Origin: Bilabrum cf. latius
Taxonomy: Eukaryota
Direction of reading: 5' to 3'
DNA: 64,000 bases
NCBI GenBank assembly: GCA_965178125.1
Contig: OZ237757.1
Span: 62,001 to 126,000, forward strand
Within the stretch, counting starts at the first letter, position 1. Each line of letters starts with the position of its first letter. Both the position numbers and the translations under genes were made by a program. Shown here one piece after another: positions 10,438 to 63,453 of this stretch. Under the pieces are notes generated by a model. It did no database searches and was not told where the DNA came from. It saw nothing but the letters and a program-made list of their open reading frames with translations.

Positions 10438-13400
10438 TCACATCCCCCCCATGAACCCGGGCAGCACGCGAGTCCTCTTGGCGCCGCTCCGACCTCTGGC
10501 TGCCCCGGCCCCGGCCCCGGCCCCGGCCCCACCCAGGGCTGCACCGACCGATGGTGACCCGCGCTTGCTGCCCACCGCAGCCCCTCGACCCGACCATCCC
10601 CCCGCCATCCCTGTCGCCCCCCCTCCGACTCCGAGTCCCCTGCCAGACCACCCGCTCCCACTGCCCCCCGCAACTCCAGCTCCGAGTCCCACCGGCGGCT
10701 CCACCAGCCCCCTCCGCTCCAGATCGATCCACGCCAGGGCCAGCTTCATGCTGTCGTACGACCCCGCTGGGCCCTCCCTGTCCCCCGCCGACATGTGCGG
10801 CAGCATCGCATCCCGCAAGGGCCGCAGCCTCACCGCCCGCAGTCGAAGGGACCGGGGGGGAGCCGTCCCCACCTCGGCGCACGCCGCCCTTGCCTCCGCC
10901 TCGGCCCGTGGGAGCACCTCGCGCACCGCCGCGCGGGCGGCATGCAGGGTCTATGGGGCCACGCCGAGGGCTTGCGGTGACGAAGGGAGCGGCATCAGCG
11001 AGACCCCCGCACTCGTCACACCCGCCCCAGAGCCGGACCCGCCTGCGTGCAGACGAGGCACGCCAGCCGGCTCGGCAGCGGCCAGCGCCCCGCTCACGTA
11101 CTCTACCACGGTGCTGGCCTTGACGCCCTTCTCGGTCGCAACCTCGGGCCAGGGGCGCCCCCTCAGCACGCACTCGTCATACATTTCAGTCCGTCGAGCG
11201 CTCAGGGGGGGCACGGGGTCTGCGAAATTGCCCTGCAGCACGCCTCCAGCGGCAGGGGACGGGGCGGCTGCTGACCCTGTCCCCGCACCCGCTCCTACTC
11301 CTGCTCCTACTCCTGCTCCTACTCCTGCTCCTACTCCTGCTCCTGCACCTGCTACCTTCCCCATGGCCACCCCCGGCGCGCCCACTGCGAGCTTCATTTC
11401 CGCGCACTTGGCCCGTATGATCCCCAGCACCCCATGCCCGTACCTGGTGGCCCTGTGCCTGCTCATGCCGTGTGCCGCAAGCAGGCCCGCAAGATCCACC
11501 GGCCGCATGCGTGCCAAGTCCCTCAGTGTGCGGTCAGGGAACAACGAGTGCGCGGGAATGCCCTCCCCCAGCGCCACCTGTGCCCTGTATACCTGCAGTG
11601 CATGCAGGAGCAGCCCCTCGGGAACAGTCAGCGGTCGATCCGGTTCCCCAGCGGCGGGAGACACCCCAGCCCGGCTGGGGGCACTTCCACCCCCACCCGC
11701 ATCCAGCTCCAGACCCGCCGCCGCCGCCCCCTCCCGAATGGCCCGCAGGAAGGCGGCCCCGTACTGCTGCACCTTGACCTGCCCCATGCCGAACACACCG
11801 TGCAGCCCCGCATCCGTGGAGGGCCTGGATCTGGCCATGTCCCGGAGCGTGCGGTCCGAGCCCACGCAGAAGGCCGGCACAGCCGCACTCCGGGCGAGCT
11901 CCGCACGAACGGAGCGCAGGTGCTAGAACACCCTGTCTTCCCCCGGACTCAGCTCCGAGGCACCACTCGCCGCACTGCTGCTGCTGCTGCTGCTGCTAGA
12001 GGACGAGGCGCCGCCTGCACCTGCCATGACCCCTGCCAGGCCTCGGCCCGCGCTGGCCCCTGCAGCCATCATGGCCGAAGCCGCCCCTGCGCCTCCCAGT
12101 GCGGACGCAAGCCGGCCGCACCTCTGCAGCGAGTACAGCATGCCGGGGGCCATGCCCTTGGCAGGTAGCCGCACCGATAGTGCTGCAACTGCCCCCGGGG
12201 GCACCGCTGCCGCACCCACCTCGGTAGCTCTGGGCACGCCCCCCAGCTTGGCAAAGGCACTGGCCCCCTCCGCCGTTGGGACGTACTTGACGAAAGTGGC
12301 AGTCCTGCCCGAGCCCCCCGCCGCGAACGAAGTCACCTCACCATCCACGAGGCCCCTGCCCTCGAGAGCCTGAAGCATGCCGTCCCAGAACTCCTTGGAC
12401 AAGGCCTTGCCCAGCCCGAACCCGGGGGCTCCCTTGAGCCTGTCCTCGCCCCACGTCCGTTTCATCGCCGCGCTGGGGGAACCCCGCACCACAGAGATCA
12501 CGGCCGTCTTGCTGCCCCCACGCATCCACTGCAGCGCGGCCAGCAGCAGCCGAGCCTCCGGAGTCACGTCGATCGAGTGACCCTCCGACCCGCCTGCAGC
12601 TCCCCCCTTGCCCTTTCCGCTGGCAGCACCCGCCCCCGCCCCAGGGTCGTCCTCCCCGAAGTAGGCCAGCACCAGTCTCCTGAACTCCGCCTCGTCCCTC
12701 TCCCCCACTATGGCCACCCTCCGCATGGCCTTGAACAGCTCCCGCTTCCCTTCCGAGTCGAGGGCGAAGGAGAGGCTGGCAGCATCTGCATCGGACCAGA
12801 GCAGCAGACACCTGGAGGGCTCGCCGTCCCTCCCCGCCCTCCCCGTCTCCTGGTAGTAGCCCTCGATGCTCTTGGGCAGCCCGCAGTGCACCACCGTCCG
12901 GATGTCCTTCTTGTCGATCCCCATCCCGAACGCGATGGTTGCAACCACGGTGTCCACGCGGTCCAGAGTGAACTGCCGGTGCACTGCGCGGCGGCGCGCC
13001 ATGTCCAGGCCAGCGTGGTACGCCGCCACGCTGCGACCCGCCCCCGCGCACGCCGCCTGCAGCTGGACGGCGAGCTGGTCCGCCTGCGCCCGCCGGTGCA
13101 CGTACACGATCGCGGCGCCCTTCCGGTTCCGCAGCTCATGCGCGGCGCGAGCGGCCATGTCACCGGGGCCTGCAGTGCGCTGCACCTTGTACGCGAGGTT
13201 GGGTCGGTTGAAGGAGGAGACGATCACCTCTGGGCTATGCAGCCGCAGCTGCGCGCAGATGTCCGCCCTTACCCTCCGAGTGGCTGTGGCGGTGAGCGCC
13301 AGGCAGGGCACGCCGGGGAGGAAGGTGCGGGCTTCGTGAATGCGCAGAAAGGACTCCCGGAAGTCGTGGCCCCACTGGGACACGCAGTGGGACTCGTCCA

Positions 13401-14016
13401 CGGCCAGCAGGCAGACGCCCGCTCCCCTGTGCAAGCGGGCGAGCACGTCCCTGGCCCTCGAGGTCGCGAGCTGCTCGGGGGTGATGAACGCAACCATGTA
13501 CCGCCCTCGCTCCGCCGCTTCCCACACATCGCTCGAGGTGTCGCCCGTGAGGGCCGCCGCGGCGATTCCGTTCGCTTCCAGGTGCGTCACCTGGTCCTCG
13601 ATGAGAGCGAGCAGGGGTGAAACCACGACGGAGCATCCGGCCCGCACGTTCGCCACGCGAGTCTAGTTGAGAGCTGATCTATACAAAGGAATAAACTAGT
13701 AGGTGAGGCTCTTCCCGCTGCCTGTCGCGAGCAAGCCAAGGACATCCTTGCCGCTGAGCACTGCTCGCACTATCTCCGGCTGGAAGGGGCGGAAGGAGTC
13801 GAACCCGAAATGGTCCCGAAGCACTTTAGCGGCAATAGCAGGATTCCAAGGAATGTTGTGCCGCATTACTGCCGCTGAGTGCGAAGCCGAACTCGAGGAA
13901 GCCGATGCTAGGCGAAACACTTTGGCCACTGGTTGCTGCTGCTGCGGGCTGCTGACAGTCATTTCGCTCATATTAATGGCGTCACTAAGAGCTAAAAGTT
14001 CTTCATCGGTTGCCAT
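10438..14016 (-). CDS. RecQ/WRN-like DNA helicase (helicase core, RQC, 2 HRDC, C-terminal HTH), ~1192 aa
   Basis: FGFDSFRPFQ, TGSGKSLTY*, VVSPLLALIEDQV, AVDESHCVSQWGHDFR, LTATAT, YHAGL, ATIAFGMGIDK, YYQETGRAGRDG and two HRDC copies. Four ORF-track pieces are joined in one frame by TAG at 13696, 13663, 11923 and 10951; ends TGA 10438. Confidence 0.92.
11291..11352. repeat. 12-bp tandem repeat (GCTCCTACTCCT)n encoding a GVGA linker in RecQ
   Basis: About 4-5 adjacent copies visible directly. Confidence 0.8.
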
Positions 14017-14166: not shown

Positions 14167-16251
14167 ATGAAGTATATTATAGAGCTGGTCCTGCTGGCGG
14201 TTGGAGTTCTATTTGCAGGATTCGATGTGTTGTCGGAGGGCCGACCACTGCACTGGCTTGCACTTGGCATGATCGCCCTGTCTTGCTCGCTGTAAGAGAT
14301 ATGTATGCAGCCAACACTTGTGAATCTAATTTGTGTCATGAAGGCTTGCAACTGTGTCGGTTTCGCCCTGCGCAGAAGGACTGACAGCTAGCTCTTCGCT
14401 TGGATGCCAGGGGTTGCAAGCCTTCTCTTTCACAGCCATGAGCCGGGCAAAAACCTCCTGTGGCCGCACGCGGCTGCGTGGGTGCCTTCAATCGTAATGA
14501 GCGCGTCTACATCTATCTGGACTCGGCATCGGAACGGTGGCTGGCGCCTGTAGACTCAGCCTGTGCTGCACGTGTTTCTCAGCCTCGTCGCCTCCGGCCT
14601 GCTGTCTCTCGCACGGGCGAGCGACTCGATGGGGGTTCCGCGGCTAATCAGGCGGGTCGCAACGCCTGCTTTGCTTGTCGCAGTTAGCGTCCCGCTCCTC
14701 CGCAGCGTTTTGCTATTCGGGAGGGGCACTCATCAGACGGTCGAGCAGCCCCCTCTGCCACCAAGAGATGGCGTGACATCTGCGATGCTGGTTCGGATGG
14801 CCAAGAGGGCTCGGTAGGATGCCCATGCAAGCGCCACTTGGGACCCCGCGCACCTCCTGCTGCTATCCCAAGCGGCCGTGGGGGCCGCGGGCTGCTGGGA
14901 TGTCCTCTCCCAGAGGGTGCGGCTGGCGGCCGACTGGGCCGACTGGAGGGAGGGGGGCTCTGTCCCGGGCGGGCCCACGCCCTACCACCTCGCAGGGAAC
15001 AGCGAGGGGGCTGCGGGAGACGGGGACATGGGCGGGCACGCGGGCCAGGACGAGAGGATGGCGGGTGCGGGCGCGGCCCTGCTGCTCGCCGCGGGGCTGG
15101 CATGCGCGGCTGCTCTCGGGGCTCGATGGGCAGGGGCTGCCAGGCCGCTGGTCGGGTGCATCGCACTGACGAGCGGGCTGCTGGGCGCCGAGGTGCTTTC
15201 CTCCTGGTGGCTCGGGGAGGAGGCCCTGGCTTGGGCCACCAGGGCGCTGCTGTTCCCTCTCGCGCACCAAGGTGCAGCGCACGACAACACATCGCGCAGC
15301 GGTGGTGCAGGTCCGTTATACCCCAATGCAATGCACCCAGTGGACCCGGCTGCCCCGGCCTCCATGCTGCGGTGGCGCAGGCCGGTCCTGTTGGCGGCGT
15401 GGCTGCTGGCGGTGGGGCTGCTGGTGCTGGCGGGGCGGCAGGCCGTGCAGGGCGGCTGCATGGCTCGGATCGTGGCCAGGAAGATCTTCCACGGAGTAGC
15501 CAGCGCGTGCATCGCTGCGGGGTGGTGGTTCGACCGCCCCCTTGCCCAGCTGGCGCTGTCCTCTGCCCTGCTTGCCTGCGCCTTGGCGGAGGCGTGCAGG
15601 TGGACGGGGCTGCTTGGGAGGAGAGCCACAAGGGCGATAGACGCGGCACTGCTGCCCCTTGCAGATGCACGCGATGCGAGCGGGATCATCCTGAGCCACG
15701 TGTACCTGCTGGTGGGCTGCTCCTCCCCTGTGCTGCTGCTCGCTGCTCTGCAGGGGGCCGGGGTGCGCGGGCACGAGCCACAGCTGCAGCTGGAGGGACA
15801 AGCCATGGTGTGGGGCGTGCCTGCCTCGGAGCATAGTTGGGCTCTCGGTGGCTGGAGGGGGTCGCGGGCGTCATTCGTGGCCGCAGCGCAGGAGCTGCTG
15901 CCGATGGCGGGTGTGCTGGCGGTTGGGATAGGGGACGCGGCGGCAGCTGCGGTGGGAAGCACGGTAGGACGACTCAAGCTGCCGTTCGGAGGAGCACCCA
16001 AGACGGTGGAAGGGACGGTAGCATGCGCGGTGAGCGTTGCGCTGTCCTCAGCGGCCTGGCTGTGGCTATCTTGTGTGGGAGCGCCGGGATGGGGAGCGCT
16101 GGGGCTCTGCTCTTTGCTGGGCGTCTGGCTGGCACTGCTCGAGGCCTATTGCACTGGAGTAGACAACATTGGCCTGCCCATCGCGGCTGCGACGCTGTTG
16201 GCAGCAGTTGCTTCGTCGAGTGATCCTGCTGCATCCGGATCTGGATCTTGA
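14167..16251 (+). CDS. DOLK: Dolichol kinase
   Basis: ARKIFH, DARDASGIILSHVYLLVGCSSP, GVLAVGIGDAAAAAVG, KTVEGT, EAYCTGVDNIGLP. ATG 14167, frame-preserving intron 14292-14375 (GTAAGA..CGCAG), TAG at 14389, 14551 and 14815, TGA 16249. Confidence 0.88.
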
Positions 16252-16494: not shown

Positions 16495-18615
16495 TCACCA
16501 CAGCTCGAGCAGACTGACGAGATCGTCATACCCGAGGCGGGTGGCGATCTGAAGGGGGGACTCTGGGTTGGCCTGGCTCGCATCCCGGTGGTCTACCCCT
16601 GCCTGCAGCATGGCGCGCACGATTTCGATGCGATTCTTCTTGCACGCCAGCTGCAGGGGCGTCGTGTTGTCGTCTAGCGTACGGGCGGAGACGTCGGCCC
16701 CGAGGTCGAGCAGCGTCCCCACGCAGGCTGTCCGCCCGAGCTTCACGGCGAGGTGCAGGCACGTCTCGCCAGATGGCAGCGCCTCTGCAGTGCTCGACCC
16801 AGCCTCGACCAGCATGCGAGCCAGCTCGGAGTTGCCATACTCCGCCGCCAGCAGCATGGCTGTGTAGGAGCGCTGCCCCACACATGTTACGTCAGCGCCC
16901 GTGCTCAGCAGGCGCTGCACGATGCCAACATGCTGCTTCCACACCGCCTGCGTCAGCGCAGTCTCCCCGTTCGTGTTGGCCAGGTTCACTGCCTCCGGGG
17001 CAATGTCGAGCAACGTAGCAACGATGTCCTCGTGGCCGTGTCTAGAGGCCCAGAAGAGCGCCGTCTCGCCGTGCTTGTTCGGTACGGCCGCGTTGCCCAC
17101 GTGAAGCTCCAGCAATGCTTGCACGCACTCAGTCCGCCCATTTTTCGCAGCCAAGAGGATAGGTGTGTTACCCGACGGCAGCGTCTCCTCAGGATCTGCT
17201 CCCGCAGCCATCAGCATGCGAACCAGCTCGGAGTGGCCGTGCTCCGCCGCCAGCAGCAGCGCCGTGTACTCGTTCTCCCCGCGAGCCGTCAGCTGCGCGC
17301 CAGCGTCCAGCAGCCGCCGCGCGATGCCAACATGCTGCTTCCACACCGACTGGGTCAGCGCAGTCTCCCCGTTCGTGTTGGCCAGGTTCACTGCCTCCGG
17401 AGCAGCCTCGAGCAAGGCCGCTGCGATGTCCTCGTGGCCGTGTCTAGAGGCCCAGAAGAGCGCCGTCTCGCCGTGCTTGTTCGGCACTGCCACTTGCTCT
17501 TTTCCTCGCTGGATCAGCGCCTCCACGCATTGGTCGTGGCCGTGCTTGGCAGCCAAGAGGATAGGTGTGTTGCCCGACGGCAACACCTCAGCAGTGCTTG
17601 CACCTGCATTCAGCAGCAGCTGCATGATGTAAAAGTAGCCCTCCTTGGCCGCATGCAGCAGGGGCGTGCACGCGCTCGGGTCGGGGGTAGTCGCGTTGGC
17701 ACCGGCACCCAGCAGCCGCCGCACGATGCCAACGTGTTTTCCGGCCACCGCCTTGCTGAGAGGCAGGTCGCCGTCGTTGGTCGCCAGGTTGGCAGCATCG
17801 GGGCATGCCTCGAGCAGCGCGCCCACCATCTGCTCGTGGCCCCCCTTGCACGCCCAGAAGAGAGCGGTCTCGCCTTGCTTGTTCGGTATCCCACAGGTCT
17901 TAGGGGCTTCCTTCGCTAGAAGTTGCAAACACTCCACTCGACCACACTTGGCGGCCTGGATCACGGGTGTGTTACCCGACGGCAGTGTCTCCTCAGTGTC
18001 TGCTCCCGCAGCCATCAGCATGCTAGCCAGCTCGGTGTGACCGTACTCCGCCGCCAGCAGCAGCGCCGTGTACTCGTTCTCTCCGCGAGCCGTCAGCTGG
18101 GCGCCAGCGTCCAGCAGCCGCCGCACGATGCCCTCATGCTTCTTCCACACCGACTGGGTCAGCGCCGTCTCCCCGTTCGTGTTGGCCAGGTTCACTGCCT
18201 CCGGAGCAGCCTCGAGCAAGGCCGCTGCGATGTCCTCGTGGCCGTGTCTAGAGGCCCAGAAGAGAGCCGTCTCGCCGTGCTTGTTCGGTATCGCGGGACC
18301 GGCCCCGCTATCGCGGAGAGCCTGGACACACTCCGCGTGGCCAAATTTGGCAGCGAGCAGCAGAGGCGTGTTGCCTTGCTGGCTCGGAGAGTCGACGGCA
18401 TCAAACCGTTCTAATATATATCTCAAAAACTCAACTCTGCCTAGGACGGCAGCCACGTGGACAACCATAAGGTCCTATCCAATCTGCGATCCGTCTTCGC
18501 GAGCAACAACGCCATGAACAGCATCAAGGGAGCCTCCATCGCTATGCGCGGCAACAAATTTATTAAATGAGCCTTCGACAACCGCTGCCATCATCGCAAT
18601 ATCTGCCGCCGCCAT
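16495..18615 (-). CDS. Ankyrin-repeat protein, ~706 aa
   Basis: Many G(N/E)T(P/A)L..AA..GH repeats; N-terminus joined by TAG 18475; ends TGA 16495. Confidence 0.9.
16780..18380. repeat. 402-bp (4-ankyrin, 134-aa) intragenic super-repeat, ~4 copies
   Basis: Marker TCTAGAGGCCCAGAAGAG at 17041, 17443 and 18247 (spacing 402 and 804), with a diverged copy near 17845. Confidence 0.85.
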
Positions 18616-23931: not shown

Positions 23932-26155
23932 ATGCAAGAGGCAGAAGATAAGATCCAGCAGGTCGTGTCTGGCCTGTACACGCAGGGACCAGAGGCATAG
24001 GAATTTTTCCAGCAGTGTAGGCGAGATGCGGCTGCGGCGTCCAAGTCGGCAGAGATCCAGGATCGCAAGCGGTACAACGTAATGCACATGCTAGGGCTAT
24101 CGAAGTATGATGACGAAGAAGAAGAGCCGCAGGAAACACGAACCGACTTCAAGTAGCTTGGCTTGGAGGCGATATCCGAGCTTTTGGGCAGAAAGTGTAT
24201 CCGGCCTCGCTCGCGAGTGACCGTCATGGTTCTGGGATCTGTTTCTGCCGGAAAGTCTTCATTCATTAACTGGTATTGCGGGAGATAGCTTCTGGAGAGC
24301 GGGGAGGCCATCAAGACCCTCCGGCTCACCGTGGTGGCGGCCGGCGATCGGGAGGCTCTCCTCACGAGCCAGTCCACCCTGCGCAACTACGCACCCCACA
24401 TCTTGCACGCCATCGTGAGTGGATCCGTTACATGCACTTACGTGTGCGAACTATACTGGCGGGGCTCCTCGCCGGCAAGCAACTCGCACGGCTCCCCATG
24501 CCAACCCTCACCCTCGCCAGGCCCCCTGCCGTGCCATGCCACGTCACCCCAACCCCCACACACCCCTGCCGCGCCCATCCCCGCAGGAGGGCAGCTCCCG
24601 CCCGCGACCAGCGGCCCTCTTCCAGCCAGCTCCCGGTGCCGGGGGCCGCAGCACCATGCTGGAGCAGCTGGTGGGCGACGGCAACCTGCAGGTGCAGACC
24701 TTCCGGATCCTGGGGGGGCAGGAATCGAGGGCAGGTTCCGTTGACCTGGTGGACACTTTGGGTCTGGACAAGGGGCTCGAGTACCCCTTCGAGGTGGACG
24801 AGGCACTGATGAGCGTGGCCTCCGCCTGCGACCTGATCCTGGTCTTCAGGGACTCGGCGGACAGGTCGCCCAACACGAGGACTGCCGAGATCGTGCAGCG
24901 GCTGAACGAGCGGAAGATCTCCACTCTGCGGATGGCGTACGTCCTGTCGAGGGCAGACGGGGCGGCCAGTGACGGAGACCTCAGCGACATCCACGCGCAG
25001 GCCACGACCTCTCTATCCCCCGCGGTGAGGGACAAGCACGGCCTCAGGGTCATCCCCATCTGGCTGCCGGCAGCCGACAGAGCCCTCCTCGAGCGGGACG
25101 GGGCGCTCCCCGACCACATGGTCAGGTGGACAGAGGCGCAGCAGCAGGCGCCCTCCACCGCGGCGCAGGCCAGGGGCGGCGGTGGCGTGCAGGCGCGCAG
25201 GGGGGGGGCGCAGGCTTCCCCCCGGGGCGGAGGGTCCTCCCGGCAGCAGGCCCAGCAGGACCGGGAGGAGGACGAAGACCTCGCCCGCATCCGCAGCGAG
25301 TACGCGCAGACGGACCTGCCTGCGCCCCCTGCCTCGCTGCTCAAGGACCTGGACGTGCAGCCATCCCGCGTGTCCCCCTCCAACAACAGGCTTGGTGAGC
25401 TGCTGCAGCTGATCCGCGGGGCCGTGTCCCGCAAGGTGCAGGAGAACATGGAGGTGCTCATCAGGGATGCATCGCAGTGCGGCGAGCTGGCAGAGGCGCG
25501 GCTGAAGTCGCACGATAAGGCCAAGCAGAGGAGAGCGGAGCTGCAGGGGCAGGCGGGCACGTTCGGGCTGGTGATCGCGCTGCTGCTGCTTGCTGTTGTT
25601 GTGGAGCTTGTGGGGCGGCAGCAGGCTTCCCTGCTGGCTTGGATCGGGGGCGAGGGCGAGGGCGAGGACGGCGAGGGGGACTTGCTGGCGGGGATGGCGC
25701 GCGCCGCGGTGCAGGGAACAGGGGCTCTGACCGGTGCCGTGGGCAGTGCCATGGGTGTGATCGGGCTGACCTCGTTGCAGGGCACTGCGGGGCGGGTGCT
25801 GCTGCTGCTGGTGCTGGCGCTCGTGCTGGCGGGACTCATTTACCTCTGGAATTGGCGGGCTGGGCGCTGCGAGGTAATGTCAGATGAGGTGTGGATGGCG
25901 ACGCATGACGCCTGGAGGCAGTGCCAGCGCCTGGTGGTCAGGGGTAACGAGCTGACCAAGCAGTACACGAGGAACGTAGCGGGGCACGCGCAGTCGGATA
26001 GGATCGGGAAGGACGTGCCGTGGGCGGACGAGGAAGAGGAAGAGGAAGAGGAGAACGGCACCAGAAGGTAGGAAGAGGGGGGTGCAGCGGAGGGGCTGAG
26101 GCAGAGGGCTTTGGCAGGGGGCAAGGGACAGCAGGATGGCGGGGAGGACCAGTAA
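23932..26155 (+). CDS. P-loop GTPase (EHD/dynamin-related GxxSAGKSSFINWY family) with two C-terminal TM helices
   Basis: VMVLGSVSAGKSSFINWY, DLVDTLGL, YPFEVDEAL, DLILVF. ATG 23932, intron 24415-24586, TAG at 23998, 24154, 24286 and 26069; ends TAA 26153-26155. Confidence 0.75.
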
Positions 26156-26293
26156 TCCGTGGGCCTAGAACCTGATCCTCTGCTGGTAGGGAACCTGTGT
26201 GTTGGATAGGCCGGAACGACTGCCTTGGCTTGCTTGGATTCTGGTATTTGTCTGCATTAAAATAATCAGGAGTCCGCATCATGCAGTCGAATC

Positions 26294-27796
26294 TTAGGCG
26301 GTTCCATCGGCGACCGGACCTGCATCCGCGCACTGCGTCCCGGCCTCCTTGCAGGGCCAGGGACACATGACATGAGGCTGGGCCTCGGGGGCGCTCTGGT
26401 TCTGCACCCACGCCGAGATGGCCTGCTGCTCGGACACGCCCCGAATCATCCTCGAGTTCCAGTCGTCGCCCGCGGTCTCGCAGTGTGCGAGGCACGACGT
26501 GATGAAGCTGCTCCTGGCCGGGCCCTTCGGGTCCGGGTTTGTCACCTGCTTGAGCACTTGCAGGTAGGCTGCCCTGTACTGCTCCAGGATGCGCAGCTGG
26601 GTAGCGTTGCAGTTGGAGAGGTTCTCGTCGCAGCTGTTGTTCCACTGCGGCAGCGGCTGCCCCTGCCCCGGGGGCATCCTCCTCTGCAAGATGCCTTTCT
26701 GGGCCCATGAGTCGTACGCGCTGTTGAGAGCGAAGAAAGGAGTCTTGGTGTGGGGCAGGGAGTACTGTGCCATGAAGCACTCGAACTCTGGCTCTCCAGC
26801 GGCCCTCTTCGCCTCGAGGCAGGCCTGATTGACGCCCGCGCTCGCGTTCTGCTCGTTGTAGACGACCTCGTACAGCGCGCGGATGGCAGGCTCCCCGTTC
26901 AGGTTCGGCAGGTCTGGGAAGAAGCCGGCGTCGCTGATGGCCACGGTCTGCATCGATGAATTCGAACGGAAATTTCGGGAGCAACTGGGTTCGTTCGCAG
27001 GATTGAGAGAAGCATAGAGTGCACTCGATGCGACAGGGCGTTGCAGGGGGTCTCACGTGGGCTTGGTTGCCAGTCACCTCCGCCATGTATGCCGCAAATC
27101 GATCGGCGTGCTGAAACGTGGCGAGCCCTCCGGCCGAGCAGCCCGCCAGCACCGCCGTGCGTGCCTCGGACACCGTGACGCGGAAGGTGGGGTCCTCCCG
27201 GAGAGTGGCCAGGACTGCCTCCAGTACCTCGTGCCCGCGGAAATGCAGTTGCGTCCCGTTGTACGTGGTAACTGTGTTGTTGCTTCCGGAAACTGCGGCG
27301 GGTTGCATGGGCATGCATGAGCCGGATAGCGTGCTACGGCGAAGGTTTGCAAACGGTACTACTGATGAGAGGTACCGGGTACGACGCAACTCTCACAGCT
27401 TGCCCCGTCGCAATACTTCAAATATACCTTGTCGAAAGTACTAAGGTACGGATTAAGGGAAGGATCATTAGACATCAACCCGTCGTCGCCTTCTCCCGGA
27501 GTCCATTCCGGAGGATAGCTCGAAGAGGAGCCCAGACTCGTCTTCGAGCGACTGTAGCAGTTTCTGGTTCCTACGCACCATCCACCCCCCTCTAGGAACA
27601 TAATGAGTCCCTTTCCATTATTTCGCTACGTTTGTGATCCAGGAGACCAGTAAAACGCTCCTGGAGTGCCATCGATACACTTGGCTAGCGGATACTTTTG
27701 AGAGTCTAGCTTGTATAGGGTGAACTTGGCTTCCCCCAGCGATGCGTGTGTCAATCCAGCAGAAAGTGTAAGTGCGGCAAGCAGCGACGCCGGCAT
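26294..27796 (-). CDS. Pectin acetylesterase/Notum-family hydrolase, secreted
   Basis: Signal peptide; CIDGTPGAFY, FLEGGGWC, YCDGAS|FSG (intron 27396-27293), GCSAGG nucleophile motif, SDAGFF (intron 27056-26948), NSAYDSW, SCLAHC. TAG at 27626; ends TAA 26294-26296. Confidence 0.88.
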
Positions 27797-31100: not shown

Positions 31101-34100
31101 GACGCGGGAAATAGAGCGAGTCGCAGAAACCATCCACTGATGGCAGCACCTCGCAATAGACTCACCATGATAATGCAGCAAGCGGGCATATTTGCGATGA
31201 TTCAGAAAATGGAGAACCAACTCGAGAATGCAGCGATGATAGAGCCAGCATTGGCTTGCAGGGAAGAGGCGGGGTGGATATGTCCAGCGCCACTGCCGAT
31301 CCAGAGGGAAGGATCGACAGGAGGATTTCATTCGCAGACCAGCAAGCAGCGAAAGCTAGCAAGCCTGCAGCTAAGCACGGGGAAGAGACCCCCGCCCAGT
31401 CCAGGCGGACCAAATGGAAGAAGCAGCTCAGTCGCGACCGGTCGGCCAGATAGGTGTGGCAGGCCAAGGCCGGGCTGGGCTCGAGCAAGAGGACCTACCA
31501 CGAGGTGACGGATGGGGCCAACTAGATGGGCATGCGAGACGTGCAGAGGAGACGCAGTGCCAAGGGCAGCGACAGCGAGGCGGACAGGCCCAGGGAGTTT
31601 CAGGGCATCCAGCGGCTGCAGTGGGTGTTGCTGGGACTTAGTCTGCTGGTGATCGCGACGCTGAGCATCCCTTTCACGGTCAGCGTGGTCGAGCTCGACA
31701 GCTTGCAGGGCAATCTCGAGAAGGCTGCTACCAGTGACCGACGAGAGACGGTTTTCTGGCTGTTGAGCTCGTACATGGCGCACATGGAGAGACTGGAGGA
31801 CTGCGGGAACAGCCCAGGGATTGAGGGCATTCCGCCCGAGATGCTGCTGGACCTGTCCGAGGCAGCGGGCGAGTTCAGCTACCTGCAGCACCGTCTGGTA
31901 TTCTGTGACGAGCCGAACGCCGACCTGCCTTCCTACCAGCGGTACGCGCAGAACCTTCCCACGGGCTGTTCCTCGGGCGAGCTGGCCATATCGCTGACCA
32001 GGGACACTCGAGTGACGATTGCCGAGCTCTCCGCGGAGGTGAACGAGTCCACTGGATCCATCAGTCTCTCTGAGTTCAAGCGGGACCTGCTGATCGATGA
32101 CTACACGCAGAAGGTCATCTACGACCTAAGGAGGCTGGCGGTCAACGTATCGGAGGCATATCCAGGCACGGGGTGGGGCACAATGGTCTCCCTTGAGTCT
32201 CACTGGCTCACGGCACTTTCGCTAGCGCTCCCACCGGGCCAGATCCCGGGGGCGCTGCAACAGTACAACAAGTCGTGTATCGCGCCCGCGCTAGCCTCCA
32301 CCGCGCATGGGGATGCCTACAACGGCTGGGCGCAGGTGATGTACAACGCGCACAGCATCGGAGACGCACTGGGCCGCTCAACGGACATATACGAGGAGGC
32401 TGTCCTGCGGAGCGACCGGACGTTCCTGATCGCGCTCATCACCACGAGCGTGCTTCTTACTGCAGTGTTCGCCGGCGTCCCCTGCTGCCTCGCGTGGGCC
32501 CTCAGGAGTGCTCATCTGGAGCAGGCCATGGGGTACTACCTCCTCGATGCTGTGCCCCCGGCGGCCTTTCGCGCGGTGCTGGACAAGCTGGACGGCTCTC
32601 AGGGGGATCAAGTGACGGAGGCCAAGGACCTGAGCCGGCAGGACTCCTTTGGCGACATCAAGGACCTGGCAGAGGGAAACATCGAGGGTGGGAGCGGTGC
32701 AACCAGCCCCGGCAGTGAGCGCGAGAGCACGTCGATTGACGGATCCGTGCTACGAGCCCAGATCCGGGAAGCGGACTCGTCACACCTGCAGAAGATGCTG
32801 GGGAAGAACGGGGCGCGTCCCGGCAGCGTGCTGCACGCCGCCATGGAGCGGCTCCAAGTATCGGACAGGAGGGCGGCCCGCCGGGCGGCTGGATTTGGGA
32901 CTGCGCGAGTCTCGGATGCCAGCGCCTGGTCGGCGGGACTCGAGGGCGGGCTGCTATAGCCTACTAGGGAACAACACGGGCTGCTCCAACCTACTAGGGA
33001 ACAACACGGGCCCGGGAGTGCCACGGTCCTGGAGCAGACCAGCACCAGCGGGGCCAGTGCACCCAGGGAGGCAGCGGCAGGGCGCGATGGGTAGATCCAC
33101 GGCGAGTCCAAGCTGATACCAACTACAGATGAGAGATCAAAGGGCAGAGCTGGGGTGATTTTGCCCAGTGCATCTGCGGCAACGGGAAATTCCAAAGAGG
33201 GCTCCGGGGTGATGTCGGTGCATTCCGGCAAGGTGCCGTCGCTGGCACGACCCCGCGACTAGAGAGAGGCACGGACGGAGAGAGCGACGACTGGTGCAGG
33301 GGCCACAGATGGGGACCCTCTGCTGCAATTGCTGGGCGAGGTGTAGGCAGTGCACGAGGGCGGGTGGCAGTTCCGGCAGGATCTGTGGCGCGTGGTCGGC
33401 GCCGGATTGGCCGTGTGGGTCGCCACAACGGTGATCGCCGTGCTGCTGCCAGTCATGTACGACTCTGCCTCGGAGATCATCCAGCAGTTCGACGTTATGG
33501 GCAGGTGGCTGGTCACCGTGGCTCGCTCCTAGTTCGAGTACATGGTATTCACCGCGCGATCCAACGACGTGGTGTCGTATGCGAACTTCCCCACCGAGCT
33601 GGGCGTGGCCGGCCTGGGCCTGCCGCCGTGGTACCGCTTCAACGAGAGCTGGAGCCAGGACGTGGTCGGGTCTCTGGCAGATAAGGCCGAGGAGCTGCAC
33701 CGATGCGTCGTGTTCGGCTGCGCGGAAGAGGGCGTGCTCGGGGTGTCGACCTCGCCCAAGCTGGAAGACTACTTCTTCGGGCCAGCTGGGATCGACGAGG
33801 GGTTCAAGGTGTACGTGCAGGACCTCCGGCTGAGGTCGGTGGAGGCGCCCATGTATACGTCCACCGCGTACATGGCCATGCGCAACCTGCCTCGGCTGTA
33901 TGCTAGCCTCTTCAACGACTGGGCGGGACAGTACGTGCTCACGCTGGCGGTGGGTATGGGCTGCGTGCTGGCAATCGTGGGGGCGTCCTTCCTCCACTAC
34001 TACTTTGTGTTCGTGCGCGCGTTCACCGCGCAGACTAGGAGGTATCGATTCATGCTGGGCTTGCTGCCCGATCGACTCGTGACGCAGCTGCCGCTGTTCA

Positions 34101-34811: not shown

Positions 34812-37454
34812 TCACACTTCATTCGCGAGACCGGCCTTCGCACCTATATATGGGTTCATAGTCTGCGGGGCCGGTGCATGAGGCGGAGCCACCGTGCTCT
34901 GGGATGAGACCTCGGCCGGCTTGCTGTCGCCGCCATCATCGGCGTCTTTGGTCTTCTTGGCGAGCTTGTCCTCGGTGGGCTCGATGGACCCGCAGCTCAG
35001 GTTCCCGCCGCACACCATCACGTCAAAGGTCCGGATGCCCCCTGCCACACTGGCAAAGGCACCCATGATGAGGGTCATGAAACCACCAGCAGCGCCCAGA
35101 ATGTACTCCCAGGACCGCTTCACGATGGTGCCACTGGACCGTTGTCCCGACAGCACCACCTAAGCCATCGAGTAGTCTCCGTTGATGTCGTTCAGTGCGT
35201 TGATTGCCGCCACAGGCACAGGCACTGCGGCGTTGTTGCCTTCCAAGGTGATGAAGCCAGCGTCGGTGCCCGAAACTAGGGTGCGATTGACGGCCCTCAT
35301 GACCCTCCATAGGCACGACGTCCGGTTCTGCGTGCTGAGTGTCTCCTTGATGTCGTCATTGGTGAACGTGGACGAGCGATCGGTGGCGATAGACAGGTAC
35401 CCAGTGGACAGGCGGGCCCCCTGGGGGTTACTGTTGAGGCTGCCGCCTTCCTTGTACGAGGACGAGTGGTGCTGGAGCAGCACACGACCACGGGCGATGG
35501 GCACGCCGCCCACTGACCGCAGCAGCTCCTTCTTGCCTGATGGGTTGTCTCGCAGGGACAGGATCTCGGAGCGGATGGACATGCCAACCTCGGCGGTGGG
35601 ACGGCCGCGGTTGAAGTCTGTGTACGAGTACTCGGTGTTGAAGCTGCGGAGTAGGTGTGCACGATCAGAGGGGAATGAGGAGAACAGTGACCGTGCTCAG
35701 GGTAGAAGAAGTGAGAACTAAGCCTGTCAAGGCTGCTAGCGCACGCGCGACAATTCGCATGGTTGTACCAATATGCACTGACTCATGTCACCTCTCACCC
35801 TTCCTTCTTGGCTTCGCTCAGCGCAGACTAGGACTCTACGGGGGGCGCCTCTCCGTCGTCCCACTGGTTCCACGTGTTGGGGTTCAGATCCGTCTGCCAC
35901 TCGTCGTCACCGTAGCCGCCGGACCCGCCCTCGCCGCCGTAGTCCCCCCCGAAGAACTGGTCCAGCTCCTCGTCGGACAGACTCTCGAGACCGCCGTAGT
36001 AGTCGTCCTGGAAGCCGGCACCTGCGGGAGCATGTGCAAAATTGACGAAACAAGGCTTGAAGTATCTTACTGACTGCCGATGCACAAGAGATTCACAGCA
36101 TCACTCCAGCGAAAGGCACATGCTAGCCCGCTCACCAGGGTCGAAGCGGAAGAAATCGTCCTCGTAGGTGCCCCCCCCGAAGAAATCGTCCTGCGAGCAG
36201 GCATAGAGAGGGAGATGCAAGGAAGTAGATCGTCCAATGTGAGCATGCGCATCAGGCTGTGTAGACTTGGACCGGATGCAACCAGAAGGCTCACCACTGC
36301 ACCGCCAGGTCCACCGAAATCGTCGTAGCCAGTGTCATCACCGCCGCCGTAGCCGGTATCATCATCGCCGCCGGTGCCAGTGTCATCATCGCCGTCGGCG
36401 CCAGTGTCATCATCGCCGTCGGCGCCAGTGTCATCATCGCCGTCTGCGCCAGTGTCATCATCGCCGTCTGCGCCAGTGTCATCATCGCCGTCTGCGCCAG
36501 TATCATCATCGCCGCCGGTGCCAGTGTCATCATCGCCGTCGGCGCCAGTGTCATCAGTCAGCCGGCGCGCCTTGATCGCTGCACGGCGACGCATGGCCCG
36601 CACGATACCCGCACGGATCCGCACGCGCTCCGCCTCGTCCTGCTGTACGTCCACGGCGGCGACATGAGTGTCTTCGGTGACGGGGTACAGGTGGCCAGGG
36701 AAGGAAGCTGGCCGCACCCGGGCCCAGTCCAGCCTGCTCTGCGCACCGCTGATCGCGTTGACCTCGTGCACGGGGGTGTCACGGGACTGCATGCGGGCCA
36801 GGCGGCGCGTGGTGGTGGTGGTGGTCCTTTGCAGGGCAGCCACGTTGGCGGTCCTATTCCAGTATACGATGATGCCGTCGTTGGCGGCGGGACTGGCGCA
36901 GATGGGCAGGCGCAGCGCTCGTTTGTATGCGAGCGAGATGCACACGCCGGCATCCTTGCTGCGATGCCAGTGAACGAGAAATCAAACCAGAATACGGCGT
37001 TATGCATGCAGGGCGGCGCGGCATGCAGTGGTGAGGTGCATAGACAAAACAGGAGAGATGATATGCTTGCTCACGCGCGAGGGGGGGCGCAGTCGCGCGA
37101 TGGCCCGGTGGTGTATCTGTACTTGCGCTCCAGGAGGCAGCCTCCTGGTGCCTCGCAGATGATCTGAACGGTGCGAGGATCGCTGGTCACGAAAGTCTCG
37201 GCCGTATTCTCGAACGGATTAATTTCCAGCTCCGCGACCACAGACACAAGGTAAATGCCAATGATCGCAGGGATGCAGAGGGTCAGTAACACACCCTGCG
37301 ATACGGAGGGATACGAAATAGTACGTGTTGCGTCAGCTTTCACCCAAACTGTCGAAGTGGCAGCTCACTCGGTGCTATGGGCCTGAAAAATACGCAACGC
37401 GAGTCCAAAAGTAACGCATAGATGTGATGTAAAATTACGCAGTCTGATACCCAT
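34812..37454 (-). CDS. Multi-exon two-TM protein with large Asp/Gly-rich loop (start and some junctions approximate)
   Basis: TM1 GVLLTLCIPAIIGIYLVSVV (~37300-37235); Cys-containing loop; TM2 SWEYILGAAGGFMTLIMGAFASV. TAG at 35828 and 35160; several GTGAG..CAG introns; ends TGA 34812. Confidence 0.55.
36328..36556. repeat. 24-bp coding minisatellite encoding (DDDTGADG)n, ~9 copies
   Basis: GCCAGTGTCATCATCGCCGTCGGC and close variants in tandem. Confidence 0.92.
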
Positions 37455-38587: not shown

Positions 38588-39127
38588 CACGTCCCGGTCG
38601 TCGTCAGGGAACGTGAGCTCCCTGCCGGCAGGTTTGATATCAATCACACATAAAACATGTCAAGCAGGGACCAGTTGGCCGGATCAGCAGGTAGCATCCT
38701 GCACCGCAGCCAGTCTGTCCTGCCGTAGACCCTCCATGAGCTCACGGGTGGGCGGGCTTTCAACAGAACTCCAGTGCCCAGATCTTTATATCTGTGGCGC
38801 TGCGCGTTGCGTCTCAGCCTCCACTCGAGCACTTGCCTCAAGGGAAGTGCCTCGGGAGCACAAACCAGGACCCGAACGACTCGGAATCAGTCGGGCCTGA
38901 TCCCAAGTCTTACCGGGTCCCGATTTGTTATAATACGATGGCATAATTAATCTCTGTCCAACCTGCCGGTTGGTATTTGCTGAGAAAGACGGCGATGGGG
39001 ACGGGGTGAGCTGGCCCGCACCAGCCTCACCCAAGGGCTGCCCGCCTCGGCAGCCCCACACCACATTGATGCTACTCGGACGGGAGGGGCGCCCGTCCGT
39101 TGTCCTCTCGCCATTCTGACTCATTCC

Positions 39128-40050: not shown

Positions 40051-40274
40051 CTCGCGCCGGCTCGCCAGGCTGACATCAACCGCACTGCAGCGTATGGCAG
40101 GCGCACCCAAGCGCCATCGAGACCAAGCAAGCCCAACTCTGTGGCAGCCGACGCGAAGCAGCCCACCCCGGCTCGCCTGGCTGACTTTGACAGCAAGGCG
40201 GCCACTGGCAGGCGCGCACATGCGCCATCAAGCCCCAGCAAGAGCAAGTATACCCATAATGCACTCTGATCCCT

Positions 40275-41455
40275 CCAGCCTCAGAGTCTGCACCACGATG
40301 TGCTCTGCTCTCACCAGCCTCATAGTCTGCACCACGATGTGCTCGGCTCTCACCAGCCGCAGAGTCTGCACCACGATGTGCTCTGCTCTCACCAGCCGCC
40401 GGGCCTGCACCACGATGTGCTCTGCTCACAGCAGCCGCAGAGTCTGCACCACGATGTGCTCTGCTCACACCAGCCGCTGAGTCTGCACCACGATGTGCTC
40501 TGCTCTCACCAGCCGCCGGGCCTGCACCACGATGTGCTCTGCTCACCTTAGCCGCAGAGTCTCCTCGTCGTCATCACCATCAGATACCTCTGCCCGTTTC
40601 CCACCGGCGAGCCCTCGTTGAATAGAGCCTACGGCGTCAACCCTAGTCGCCTCGGCAGAGCTGCCCTATAAGAGGGCAAGACGCACATCCGGAGCGGGAG
40701 GAGAGGCAGCTGGCATCTACAGCGAGGCGCGCTGCTCACAGCAGCCGCCGAGCCTGCACTACGAAATGCTCTGCTCACACCAGCCGCTGAGTCTGCACCA
40801 CGATGTGCTCTGCTCACACCAGCCGCTGAGTCCGCACCACGATGTGCTCTGCTCACAGCAGCCGCAGAGTCTGCACCACGATGTGCTCTGCTCTCACCAG
40901 CCTCATAGTCTGCACCACGATGTGCTCTGCTCACACCAGCCGCTGAGTCTGCACTACGATGTGCTCTGCTCACAGCAGCCGCAGAGTCTGCACCACGATG
41001 TGCTCTGCTCTCACCAGCCTCATAGTCTGCACCACGATGTGCTCTGCTCTCACCAGCCGCCGGGCCTGCACCACGATATGCTCTGCTCACCTTAGCCGCA
41101 GAGTCTCCTCGTCGTCATCCCCATCAGATACCTCTGCCTGCTTCCCACCGGCGAGCCCTCGTTGAATAGAGCCTACGGCGTCAACCCTAGTCGCCTCGGC
41201 AGAGCTGCCCTAAAGAGGGCAAGACGCACATCCGGAGCGGGAGGAGAGGCAGCTGGCATCTACAGCGAGGCGCGCTGCTCACAGCAGCCGCCGAGCCTGC
41301 ACTACGATGTGCTCGGCTCTCACCAGCCGCAGAGTCTGCACCCCGATGTGCGCTTCTCTCACTAGCCGCCGGGCCTGCACCACGATGTGCTCGGCTCTCA
41401 CTAGCCGCTGAGTCTGCACCACGATGTGCTCGGCACTCACCAGCCGCAGAGTCTG
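40275..41455. repeat. 39-bp minisatellite arrays inside the retroelement
   Basis: Unit GCAGAGTCTGCACCACGATGTGCTCTGCTCTCACCAGCC in three blocks (~40275-40560, ~40740-41105, ~41280-41455), separated by a recurring ~180-bp spacer. Single units also occur at ~42305 and ~43365. Confidence 0.92.
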
Positions 41456-44170: not shown

Positions 44171-44857
44171 ACTCCGTGGGTGCCGTTCGCCTCGGCCACC
44201 CGGTGGCTGCCGCCGTATCCACTGCCCCAGTTATTGCCGCGTTCTGCAGGCTGATGAGGTGCCGCATCGCCGTCATCTGGAGGAGGTCGCACGCTAGCTG
44301 CGCACCTGTTGGCGTGCCGTCGAGCATGGTCCACCGGAACACCCGCACCATCAGTGGCGACTCGTCGCCTTCGGCGGACCGCCCTAGCTTAGGGAAAGAG
44401 TCGACCATGGCTGCTACCGCCTGTGGCCGTGGTTTCGAGCTCATTTCTGTGAAGAGAACTAGAGTGGGAGCCATGCTGACGAGAAAATGATCTCGCCGGC
44501 GTTGCTGTGCCTGGTCCGCGGTCTCGCATGACTTATACGCGCATTCCGGTTCCGCTAGTGCTTCCTTGCATCCACAAAAGGTAAGCTTGGCTGCGGCTGC
44601 GGCTCCCAGGCCGTCACGGATGCGGCACGAGCCGGGTCAAAATTTTGCGGTTAACTTCAGATACCCCGGGAACTCGCTACCGGCCGCACTTTGTACGCCC
44701 TCCAATAGTTCGTTAATAGTTCAAACCAACATTCGCACTAAGAGTGATACGCTAAGCAGGCGAGTACGCATGGCGTTGAGTTGCAGCGTGAGTGTTGGCA
44801 TTTCGGACCCGTCGGTGGCCAACAGTCGGTAAATTCCAGAGAATTCGTGGGCACCAC

Positions 44858-45016
44858 CTTTCAACAGAACTCCAGTGCCCAGATCTTTATATCTGTGGCG
44901 CTGCGCGTTGCGTCTCAGCCTCCACTCGAGCACTTGCCTCAAGGGAAGTGCCTCGGGAGCACAAACCAGGACCCGAACGACTCGGAATCAGTCGGGCCTG
45001 ATCCCAAGTCTTACCG
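44858..45016. repeat. Split direct repeat A1 (copy of 38757-38915)
   Basis: CTTTCAACAGAACTCCAGTGCCC...CCCAAGTCTTACCG is present twice. Confidence 0.95.
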
Positions 45017-45072
45017 CTGCCCGCCGTGTCCGCAAGTCCAAAACACCTTGGATGGAGCCACGATCGGGCCCC

Positions 45073-58477: not shown

Positions 58478-61400
58478 TTAGAGGATCACCGACTGTACTG
58501 CGTGGACTAACCCATCATCCTTTGCCTCGGCACCATCCGCACCGCCACCAAGTGCCCGCCACGAGTGCTGCACCACCAGCTCGGCCCCGTCGCCCTCTGT
58601 GTCACCGCCGCCTGCAGCCCCCACTGGCAGCCCGATCAGGGCCCTCTCCAGCCCCTAGCCCTTCGCGCTGAGTACGTCCACTGCACCATCTGCGGTGAAA
58701 GCAGATTTGCTCGCGGCAGAGAGTCCCATGGTCGCCCCTATCATGACCCGCCCCGGCAGCACGCATCCCCTAGGAGGGGGAGCAGTTGCAGCAAAGGCCG
58801 CACGGGGCGCCCCCGCAGCGCGCACCACCGGAGTGGGCGTGTGCATGACGGCTCCGGCAAGAGGCGTATAACCATGAGCATGTCCAGGGGCGGCCTCCTT
58901 GGACCTGCCCTCCCTTCCCTCCTCGCCCTCTTTGCTCTCCGAGGTACCAGCACCCGCAGGCTCGGCTGCACTGTCGTGCGGTGCACCCGTAGAACCACGC
59001 TCATCTCGCACTTTGAGGCCCGCCCTCGACCGGACCCTACTTGTCACACCCCTCGCGGCCATCCCCACGACCGCGCCTGCCATGCCACCGGAAAGACCCA
59101 GCACTGCCAGCAACTCGCCAGGCCACGACACGCAGGCAGCACCGGCCTCGGCCAGCTGCCACGCCACCAGCGCCCTCCCAACCGCATGCCTCACCTGCTC
59201 CGATCTAGAGAGCCCCCTTTGGGCAGCCAGCATGCGCACCGCTGCAGGTGGCAGCAGGGCGGGGTGGAAAGAGGGCAGTACAACGAGGGGGGGCGCCGAC
59301 GCACTGGAGGAACTACTAGGCAGGCCCAGTGAGTGCATCGAATTGCAGTGTTCGGTTGACCCCCGCAGGTCCATCATCACCTACCGACCACACCACAACC
59401 TCCTGATGCAGCGCCCCTCGCCCTGGCCCTCGCCCGCACCAGCCCCTGCTCCAATGCCCTCCACCGTGGCAATCCACTTCCAGCTGGACACCGGACTGCG
59501 CTCAGCTCCGACCGCTCCCACAGCAGATCCTGCACTCATCACACTCGAGTCTCCCGCCATGCACGGCACCCCGATCCCCAGGGCCAGCACCTCCCGCAGC
59601 AGACCCAGGCGAAGACTCCTGCTCGTCGTCCACTGCGCACCGCCTGCCTTCGACTCCGTGCCACCGGCTGCCTCGGGCCCATCTTCAACGCGTTTTCCTT
59701 TACTTGGCTGTATGAGTGCCTCTATGGGTACCACCGCGGCAGGCAGCCTCCCTTCGTGCAGCACCGAGTACCCCAGTGCCCTGCTTGCCTGTGCCCTCGA
59801 CTCGAGCCATGTGCCCGCTTGCTTGAGCAGCGCATCGATGTCTGGGCTCGCACTGACCCCTGGGTCTGGTGCTGCTGCTGCTACTGCTGCTGCTTCCGAA
59901 GCATCAACAACGACAGGACCTGCAGACTCATTCCTGTCGTGTTCACTACCTTGCTGTAGCCTCCAGCAAGTGTCTCCCACGACTGCGATGGGGCCCTGCA
60001 AGCCGTCAAGCAAGCCTTGTGCCATCGAGGACGTATACTGCGGGGGCGTGGCTCCATCCGCCCTACCAGCTGCATCCAACATATCACCAGCGTGATCGCT
60101 CCAGCTCGGTTTCCAATCGGCTAAACCTCCACCACCGGAGCCTACCTTGAACCGGACACGATGCCCCTCGCCTAACCCTGACGGCTCACCGTATGAACCA
60201 AGCCAGCCTACTGACGGCACCACGCTCGCTACACCTTCCAGTTCCAGATAAAGGCTCCTGCCAGGGGCCAAAAGTCCCTATTGCCCCCCTTTCCCACAAT
60301 CTTGAGGTGCTTCTCTGCTCCTTGGCCCAGAGGCGGGCATTTTGATCACAACGGGCCCACCCCGAGGCCCAGAATGCGGACGAGCTTCGGCCTCAGCAAT
60401 GCAATCGTGCAATCCGTCATCGCAGAATGCCAGTAGCCGGGCACGCATGACCCCTGGTGCGCCGCTCCCAGCGCCAGAACCGCCCTGGGTCGGGCCTCTC
60501 CGCACCGGAAGGCCCCACAGGTGCACCTCCAGCCCTGATTCTGCAGACACGGACACGATGCGTGGATGTGCCAGCAGCGCGAAGACAGGGCCAGGCTTGC
60601 TGTCGCTGCCTTTGCACTGATCGGGGTGCGCAATCATTGGATCTGTCAGGTCTCGGTGGTCGATGGCTTCCATCCGCTGGTGCACCTGCTTGTCCTCTCG
60701 GTGGTCGATGGCTTCCATCCGCTGGTGCACCTGCTTGTCCTCCCTGTTGGAACCCTTGCCTGAGTCCACCGGCCCCGTCCGAGGGTCGATCAGCACGCGC
60801 AAACGACCCTATCTCTTCCCTTCAGGCCTGGATTGAGATCTATGTCCCATGTCCGGCTCGCTCTATTCAGTACCATCGCATGTCAGCTGGAGCAACACCT
60901 CCCCCGAGCCCGTGATGGTGGACTGTGCACGCCCTACATCCAGTGCACCCTCTTGTGGTGCATTCCCCCGTTTCCTGACCATGGTGACCCCGTCGATTGC
61001 ACTGCATTGCCGCGCCCACACCTCCAGATAGATATCCATCGGAGGTCCCAGCGCTGTTCCCTCGACCTCTGACTGCTCCTGCTTCGACACGGGTACGCAC
61101 ACGACACAGGCCGGCAAAGCGGACAGACCGGTGGACGCCCGCGCTGCTGCAACAGCGTCGGTCGCATCGCTGGCGCTAGTCCCTTCCCTCTCTGTGGGTT
61201 TGGACACCTGGCCAAAGCCGTCCTCATCCTAATCCTTATCATTGTCCTTGTCCTCAACCGCACCACCGTCGCTGCCATGCTCCCCGTCGTGGTGAAACTC
61301 TTTGCTCTCGCCTGTTCCGGCTCCTTTCCCTGCTTCTACTGCTCCTTTCCAATGCACCGCACCCTCCCGTGTCGGCCCATTCACGACGTCCTCAGCTGTG

Positions 61401-63382: not shown

Positions 63383-63453
63383 GCAATTGCAGCGCACTGC
63401 CGCACACCAAGAACATTTGGTCCAACGTCATATTTGGTTGTTTCTGCCTCACG

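Follow-up and report, generated by a model that had tools for sequence, protein, structure and literature searches.

The stretch of DNA analysed here, hereafter the window, comprises 64,000 nucleotides (positions 62,001 to 126,000 of the forward strand of contig OZ237757.1, assembly GCA_965178125.1, Bilabrum cf. latius) and is densely occupied by eukaryotic genes. These are long and have few introns, which are of the GT..AG type, and GC content ranges from 57 to 72% across the window, with an overall value of 63%. The genes encode a RasGEF protein, a RecQ helicase with two HRDC domains, a CCT-motif protein, a TmcB-like membrane protein, two ankyrin-repeat proteins, two sulfatases, a GH10 glycosidase, a pectin acetylesterase, an ADP-ribosylglycohydrolase, a renalase-like oxidase and a dynamin-like GTPase. 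Many of them can only be read at full length if one of the three canonical stop codons is a sense codon. We propose that the nuclear code of this organism reads UAG as glutamine and retains UAA and UGA as stops, the pattern of NCBI translation table 15, and we put the probability of this reading at about 0.8.

Coding regions were delimited with a codon-usage score trained on long open reading frames (ORFs), from which maximal-scoring segments were extracted. The main set consists of 23 high-scoring segments totalling 13,770 codons, in which the GC content of third codon positions (GC3) is about 0.78 and codons ending in A make up about 10%. All codon counts, gene-end calls, and scans for transfer RNA (tRNA) genes and Rfam families refer to this one window. 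Four sequencing runs were compared with it. Three of these (X5, X6 and X7), drawn from two studies, are presumed to be RNA, and their contigs carry spliced forms; the fourth (X1) is a DNA run that matches the window stretch with zero differing letters.

The GTPase gene lies on the plus strand. Exon 1 runs from its ATG to the splice donor (23932..24414), encodes the P-loop GSVSAGKS, matches Pfam Dynamin_N (E 3.2e-8) and contains in-frame TAG codons at 23998, 24154 and 24286. A 172-nt intron (24415..24586, GTGAGT...CCGCAG) follows, and the resulting joint from 24414 to 24587 is carried by one contig in each of X5, X6 and X7, and by none in X1. Exon 2 (24587..26152) has 522 codons, a coding segment score of 188 and a single TAG (26069-26071), and it ends at the proposed stop, TAA 26153..26155. 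Beyond this codon lie an AT-richer spacer of 138 nt (26156..26293) and then the convergent stop of the pectin acetylesterase, TAA 26294..26296 on the minus strand. The last exon of that gene (26297..26956, minus strand) spans 220 codons without any TAG.

TAG is a glutamine codon

If TAA and TGA are the only stops, the window holds ORFs of 1,068, 1,349, 1,531, 1,716, 1,075 and 1,649 codons, each interrupted by 5 to 16 TAG. The 23 segments contain 59 in-frame TAG, and neither TAA nor TGA occurs inside them. At least six further TAG lie in supported exons (three in GTPase exon 1, two in the RecQ N-terminus and one in the renalase-like N-terminus), and about five more in probable small exons, so that the figure of about 70 exonic in-frame TAG given in an earlier note on this DNA was a fair one. 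Exons bearing TAG are spliced into the transcript-derived contigs: those that join 24414 to 24587 carry all three exon-1 TAGs in X6 and X7, and two of them in X5.

The meaning of the codon is fixed at two places. In helicase motif I of RecQ (GKSLTY-TAG-F), the TAG at 13696..13698 on the minus strand aligns with the glutamine of GKSLCYQ in Escherichia coli RecQ, and this column is glutamine in 120 of 120 homologues. The TmcB-like gene contains a direct repeat whose first copy reads LL-TAG-PTREQHG (TAG at 32957..32959, plus strand) and whose second reads LL-CAA-PTREQHG, with a glutamine codon in the place of the TAG. An invariant column and an internal repeat therefore both assign UAG to glutamine, as a code that changes UAG alone to this amino acid would have it. 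Within the window, TAG is thus a sense codon meaning glutamine.

Other positions are less informative. Two further alignable TAG, one in RecQ and one in the renalase-like gene, sit in insertions and say nothing of the codon's meaning, and glutamine fits, yet is not decisive, at the AC-TAG-NGH positions of the ankyrin repeats. Alignments to PDB structures do not inform the assignment either, since the RasGEF region is free of TAG and nothing in PDB matched the ADP-ribosylglycohydrolase. Serine, the meaning of UAG in Scotinosphaera, was considered and ruled out, because at the one invariant column that carries a TAG the aligned residue is glutamine (120/120), and the second repeat copy has CAA.

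As to a role of UAG in termination, none of 19 callable gene ends needs a TAG stop, a sample of 19 genes with which rare use would be compatible, and in none of them does a TAG lie in the interval that separates the last coding-like sequence from the called stop. TAG codons cluster in low-complexity, fast-evolving regions of the proteins.

TAA and TGA inside genes and at their ends

The second half of the proposal is that UAA has kept its role as a stop. Because an ORF bounded by TAA contains none by definition, the segment search was redone with TGA as the sole frame-breaker. This returned 23 segments of 13,801 codons with 59 TAG and only two TAA, at 26153 and 58480, which lie 15 and 6 codons from the ends of their segments. 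In a complementary test, every TAA, TAG and TGA on both strands was examined for flanks that were coding-like and free of TAA and TGA over 20 codons on each side. No TAA passed (0 of 324), as against 33 of 784 TAG and 10 of 1,426 TGA. Of these ten TGA, the stop of the TmcB-like gene accounts for one; four are out of frame within genes, two belong to a 39-nt tandem array and three fall where their strand has no called coding segment. None is inside a gene's reading frame.

Base composition does not account for this absence. In the coding segments, the ratio of CAA to CAG is 70:463, so that about 13% of glutamine codons end in A, and TAA used as a synonym of TAG in the same proportion would be expected 8.9 times (pooled) to 12.1 times (summed per gene). 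Its complete absence would then have a probability between 2.5e-4 (binomial) and 5.8e-6 (Poisson). Read in the other two frames, these coding codons do contain TAA, 12 and 26 times. The earlier note had cautioned that a sense TAA would be rare in any case, given the high GC3: this does make the codon rare, but not as rare as this, with 9 to 12 expected and none seen.

The single apparent exception had already been placed in an intron donor by the earlier note, which otherwise found no exonic in-frame TAA in the host genes, and both observations hold. TAA 14293-14295 lies inside the GTAAGA donor of an 84-nt intron (14292..14375, plus strand). Contigs from X5, X6 and X7 begin to match at 14376, those of X6 and X7 carrying 141-150 extra letters upstream, and since matching resumes at this position the acceptor side of the intron is confirmed.

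TAA is found instead at the ends of genes. The 19 callable 3′ ends comprise 16 TGA, three TAA (26153 on the plus strand, and 26296 and 58480 on the minus strand) and no TAG; the three TAA ends, and their coordinates, are those the earlier note had listed. The coding score is negative after all 19 ends, and GC3 is lower after 18 of them, remaining unchanged (0.68) after the TGA at 34814. A comparison of 50-codon flanks points the same way: codons with coding sequence upstream only, set against those with the reverse arrangement, number 15 versus 1 for TAA, 64 versus 34 for TGA and 42 versus 33 for TAG. TGA, which ends 16 of the 19 genes and is absent in frame from coding segments, acts as a terminator only. 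Within the window, TAA too is absent inside genes and used to end them.

The GTPase is the sole TAA end that discriminates between codes by itself. Across TAA 26153 the coding score falls from 0.46 to -0.14 and GC3 from 0.72 to 0.47. An X6 contig (25691-26210) spans the codon without a joint, which shows that the TAA is kept in transcript-derived sequence and is not part of a GTAAT splice donor. The spacer beyond it, which contains an in-frame TAG at 26207 and a second TAA at 26258-26260, reads as non-coding: its mean coding score is -0.21 and its GC3 0.46, and a score as low as this is reached by only 0.4% of 12,735 coding windows 46 codons in length. The first in-frame TGA (26708..26710) is 185 codons downstream, antisense to the acetylesterase exon and within it, so that read-through would overlap that gene by 417 nt, in keeping with the earlier estimate of more than 400 nt. 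The 184-codon read-through frame has a mean score of -0.17, and all of the 9,709 coding windows compared with it, each 185 codons long, score higher. Its GC content of 0.80 at first and 0.55 at third codon positions is an antisense signature, the mirror image of a coding frame. Depth in the bin 26307-26973 is 0 in X5, 0.64 in X6, 3.36 in X7 and 11.6 in X1; a lack of cover past the GTPase 3′ end was not counted as evidence, and contigs cannot show where an mRNA ends.

In the acetylesterase, TAA 26294..26296 is followed by a TGA after five codons. The last exon matches Pfam PAE (E 2.5e-32) over profile positions 180-353 of 355, and 1,037 homologues were found at E up to 0.001. Judged by alignment, the C-termini of the nearest ones, which stop 6 to 11 residues before TAA 26296, fit termination at the TAA, although they cannot separate it from a four-residue extension.

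The third TAA end (58478..58480, minus strand) is the proposed stop of a long ORF at 58481-63427 that contains eight TAG, seven of them within the scored segment 58511-62737. A TGA follows 17 codons later. Past 58480 there are 170 nt of non-coding appearance, after which the renalase-like gene begins on this strand with its ATG (58310). That this TAA belongs to a GTAAGT donor was ruled out, the sequence being CTC TAA GTG GGA.

The earlier note had drawn attention to the TGA codons that soon follow the second and third TAA ends. By measurement, the next in-frame TGA comes 185 codons after TAA 26153, 5 codons after TAA 26296 and 17 codons after TAA 58480, all within the range of 1 to 246 codons seen after TGA ends; TGA is thus not unusually close behind TAA.

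Alternative readings of the three codons

The observations above support, within the window, the split code that the earlier note had preferred to ciliate table 6: TAG stands at a glutamine column, and TAA is only ever terminal. By analogy with what has been argued for other lineages that reassigned UAG alone (PMC5304391), such a code would be expected to involve a tRNA-Gln with the anticodon CUA, probably derived from tRNA-Gln(CUG), that pairs with UAG and not with UAA. It would further involve a release factor eRF1 whose recognition of UAG is lost or weakened while that of UAA and UGA is kept, and an organism without a UAA-reading tRNA(UUA). TAG codons would arise from CAG by C-to-T change, and would accumulate mainly in the fast-evolving, low-complexity parts of proteins.

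Several points weigh against this proposal. No tRNA gene was found by the scan of the window. Only three ends use TAA, and the two with a TGA 5 and 17 codons further on do not discriminate alone. Gene ends were called from the sequence. For GTPase exon 2, none of 8,000 candidates scored was a homologue (E up to 1e-5) with which its C-terminus could be aligned. The expectation of 9 to 12 internal TAA assumes the CAA to CAG proportion, and a poorly decoded TAA could be rarer. Finally, TAG use is uneven among genes: sulfatase 2 (45118-46716, minus strand), the GH10 gene (47710-49587, plus strand) and ankyrin gene 1 (16501-18312, minus strand) together have no TAG in 1,763 codons where 7.6 would be expected at the rate of the whole window, which implies that codon choice is not purely mutational.

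The alternative that survives best, though we consider it unlikely, is that TAG and TAA both encode glutamine (table 6), with TGA as the sole stop and TAA merely rare through GC3 bias. Reassignment of both UAR codons (UAA and UAG) to glutamine is the commonest nuclear variant according to published accounts (PMC5304391; PMC2984419), and the GC3 of about 0.78, the 10% or so of codons ending in A, the 16 TGA among 19 ends and the TGA found 5 and 17 codons behind two of the three TAA would all suit it. Yet it predicts in-frame TAA at glutamine positions, and these are missing both from the flank test (0/324) and from the interior of every segment, with none seen against 8.9 to 12.1 expected. The only two TAA in TGA-delimited segments sit at their extreme 3′ ends. 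Nor is TGA the only terminator, given that the GTPase ends at a TAA from which the next TGA is 185 non-coding codons away; under table 6, this protein would gain 185 antisense-type codons that score below every coding window tested.

A further alternative, to which we attach little probability, is that the meaning of TAA, and perhaps of TAG, depends on position, or that TAA is largely unused and poorly read by both tRNA and release factor. All three TAA are indeed at the 3′ ends of genes, and position-dependent codes have been described in Condylostoma, karyorelicts and Blastocrithidia (PMC11687900; PMC4967479). However, a TAA of dual meaning should also occur inside genes, where there is none, and a TAG of dual meaning should end some genes, whereas 0 of 19 need it; TGA, for its part, is never internal. 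No codon in these 19 genes, a small sample, is both sense inside and stop at the end.

That the TAG-bearing ORFs are pseudogenes or misassemblies, or that the TAA ends are splice donors with exons downstream, is most improbable: although TAA 14293 is intronic, ORFs extend to as much as 1,716 codons with no TAA or TGA but up to 16 TAG, spliced contigs contain TAG-bearing exons, the X6 contig 25691-26210 has no joint at 26153, no coding segment lies between 58480 and the next ATG at 58310, and the DNA run X1 agrees with the sequence letter for letter.

Homologues, repeats and related codes

Proteins of the window were matched against 5.8 billion sequences. For RecQ, the best matches do not exceed 47% identity, and the top match is a brown-alga record at 40%. 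The gene (10441-13800, minus strand) is of bacterial type, with its two HRDC domains, and the other named matches are bacterial RecQ proteins at about 40%. The best named matches of the renalase-like gene are animal renalases, with 27 to 36% identity, and the GTPase had none. An Amoeboaphelidium-like parasite of algae was considered in view of the wall-degrading enzymes and the opisthokont-like renalase, but is not supported: Amoeboaphelidium is not among the named RecQ or renalase-like matches, though its proteins are present in NCBI according to PMC10608142, and identities reach 47% at most. Two metagenome scans, with ankyrin gene 1 and the last acetylesterase exon as queries, gave no confirmed locus, and an Rfam search of the window gave no matches.

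Fragments of the acetylesterase, 97% and 70% identical, are present in public assemblies. One of them, a 74-residue fragment at 70% identity to the exon 26297-26956 (minus strand), is on a 2,165-nt metagenome contig from the Joint Genome Institute and ends one residue before a glutamine position of the window protein. From the alignment, a relative whose gene has a TAG or TAA in frame at that position, annotated under the standard code, would account for this end.

In the 200 nt past each called stop, TGCAT is present in 11 of 19 flanks and ATGCAT in 6 of 19 (0.9 expected), and TGCAT may be a 3′-end signal. The green-algal signal TGTAA, AATAAA and ATTAAA each occur in one of the 19. The rarity of TGTAA and the animal identity of the best named renalase-like matches give no support to a core green alga as the source, a placement that was also considered.

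The interval from 37 to 45 kb has lower GC, is rich in repeats and contains no recognisable gene. It includes two 39-nt tandem arrays (40264-41106 and 41277-41456) of 21.7 and 4.6 copies with 75-83% matches. On the minus strand, these have a coding-like codon composition with in-frame TGA at multiples of 39 nt, and on the plus strand they form open frames with TAG. Two minus-strand ORFs in this interval (41914-42849 and 43029-43910), about 1.06 kb apart, have near-identical translations, and the sequence of the pair indicates a tandem segmental duplication. A stretch of about 40 residues (...ARLIPSRSGPGLCSRGTSLEASARVEAETQRAAPQI) can be read at 38786-38900 and again at about 44850-45070, one of these just past the stop of sulfatase 2, and looks like a dispersed repeat. 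A 24-nt tandem repeat (36321-36556; 9.8 copies, 91% matches) encodes DDDTGADG-type repeats in the ORF 36289-36960 on the minus strand.

The choice of code has practical consequences. Annotation under table 1 truncates most of the long genes here at TAG, and under table 6 the genes that end at TAA would be extended into adjacent ones, as happens here where the GTPase meets the acetylesterase. UAG and UAA nearly always change meaning jointly, and a split between them is known from few lineages only. Such decoupled cases demonstrate that the translation apparatus can distinguish UAG from UAA, and they constrain models of stop-codon capture by calling for a tRNA with a CUA anticodon together with an eRF1 in which recognition of UAG alone is lost. 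Another example, from a GC-rich genome, would put to the test whether evolution arrives at the same eRF1 and tRNA solutions again.

The table 15 pattern has been documented in Iotanema spirale, Protocruzia tuzeti, Hartmannula sinica and Trochilia petrani (PMC5304391; PMC11687900). As described by Panek et al. 2017 (PMC5304391), I. spirale (Fornicata) resembles the window in reading UAG as glutamine and using UAA and UGA as stops, but UAA is its dominant stop, whereas TGA dominates in the window (16/19). This unrelated flagellate, an anaerobe, is known from a transcriptome, and its eRF1 carries the substitution T32G in the GTS motif (PMC5304391). The three ciliates share the same codon table, again with UAA as the preferred stop in the account of McGowan et al. 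2024 (PMC11687900), and their macronuclear genomes are AT-rich (PMC11687900). The window, in contrast, is 63% GC, with long genes, few introns, and a gene content that includes RasGEF, CCT-motif, sulfatase and acetylesterase genes, and nothing in it suggests a ciliate.

Related codes share one or other half of the pattern. In a related ciliate lineage in which UAG has changed to leucine, suppressor tRNA genes for UAG have been reported (PMC11687900), which is the kind of mechanism that may operate in the organism of the window. In phyllopharyngean ciliate metagenome-assembled genomes and the rhizarian exLh, UAG is leucine and UAA a stop (PMC5304391, PMC11687900); the two codons are decoupled as in the window, but the amino acid is leucine there and glutamine here. 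Scotinosphaera (Ulvophyceae) likewise reassigned UAG alone and kept UAA as a stop (Li et al. 2021, PMC8271138), yet its UAG is serine, and the RecQ column in the window is glutamine. In the literature, supplements aside, we found no description of a table-15-like code in a GC-rich alga or protist. We tentatively suggest, as a possibility short of an even chance, that a barely sampled lineage evolved the UAG-to-glutamine, UAA-stop code independently and that the window represents a GC-rich, TGA-preferring case of it.

The reassignment of both UAR codons to glutamine has been reported in Dasycladales, Cladophorales and Trentepohliales (Cocquyt et al. 2010, PMC2984419), and also in Amoeboaphelidium protococcarum (PMC5304391, PMC6299283), hexamitids, oxymonads and many ciliates. 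Codes of this kind are like that of the window in that TAG is glutamine and, where both codons are used, commoner than TAA. They differ in that TAA is also glutamine and TGA the only stop, whereas in the window no TAA is internal and at least one gene stops at a TAA that has no TGA nearby. If the split code is real, and if the group to which this organism belongs has been filed as UAR-to-glutamine from few genes, as might be so for GC-rich ulvophytes in which TAA is rarely seen, then the published assignment of UAA would need revision.

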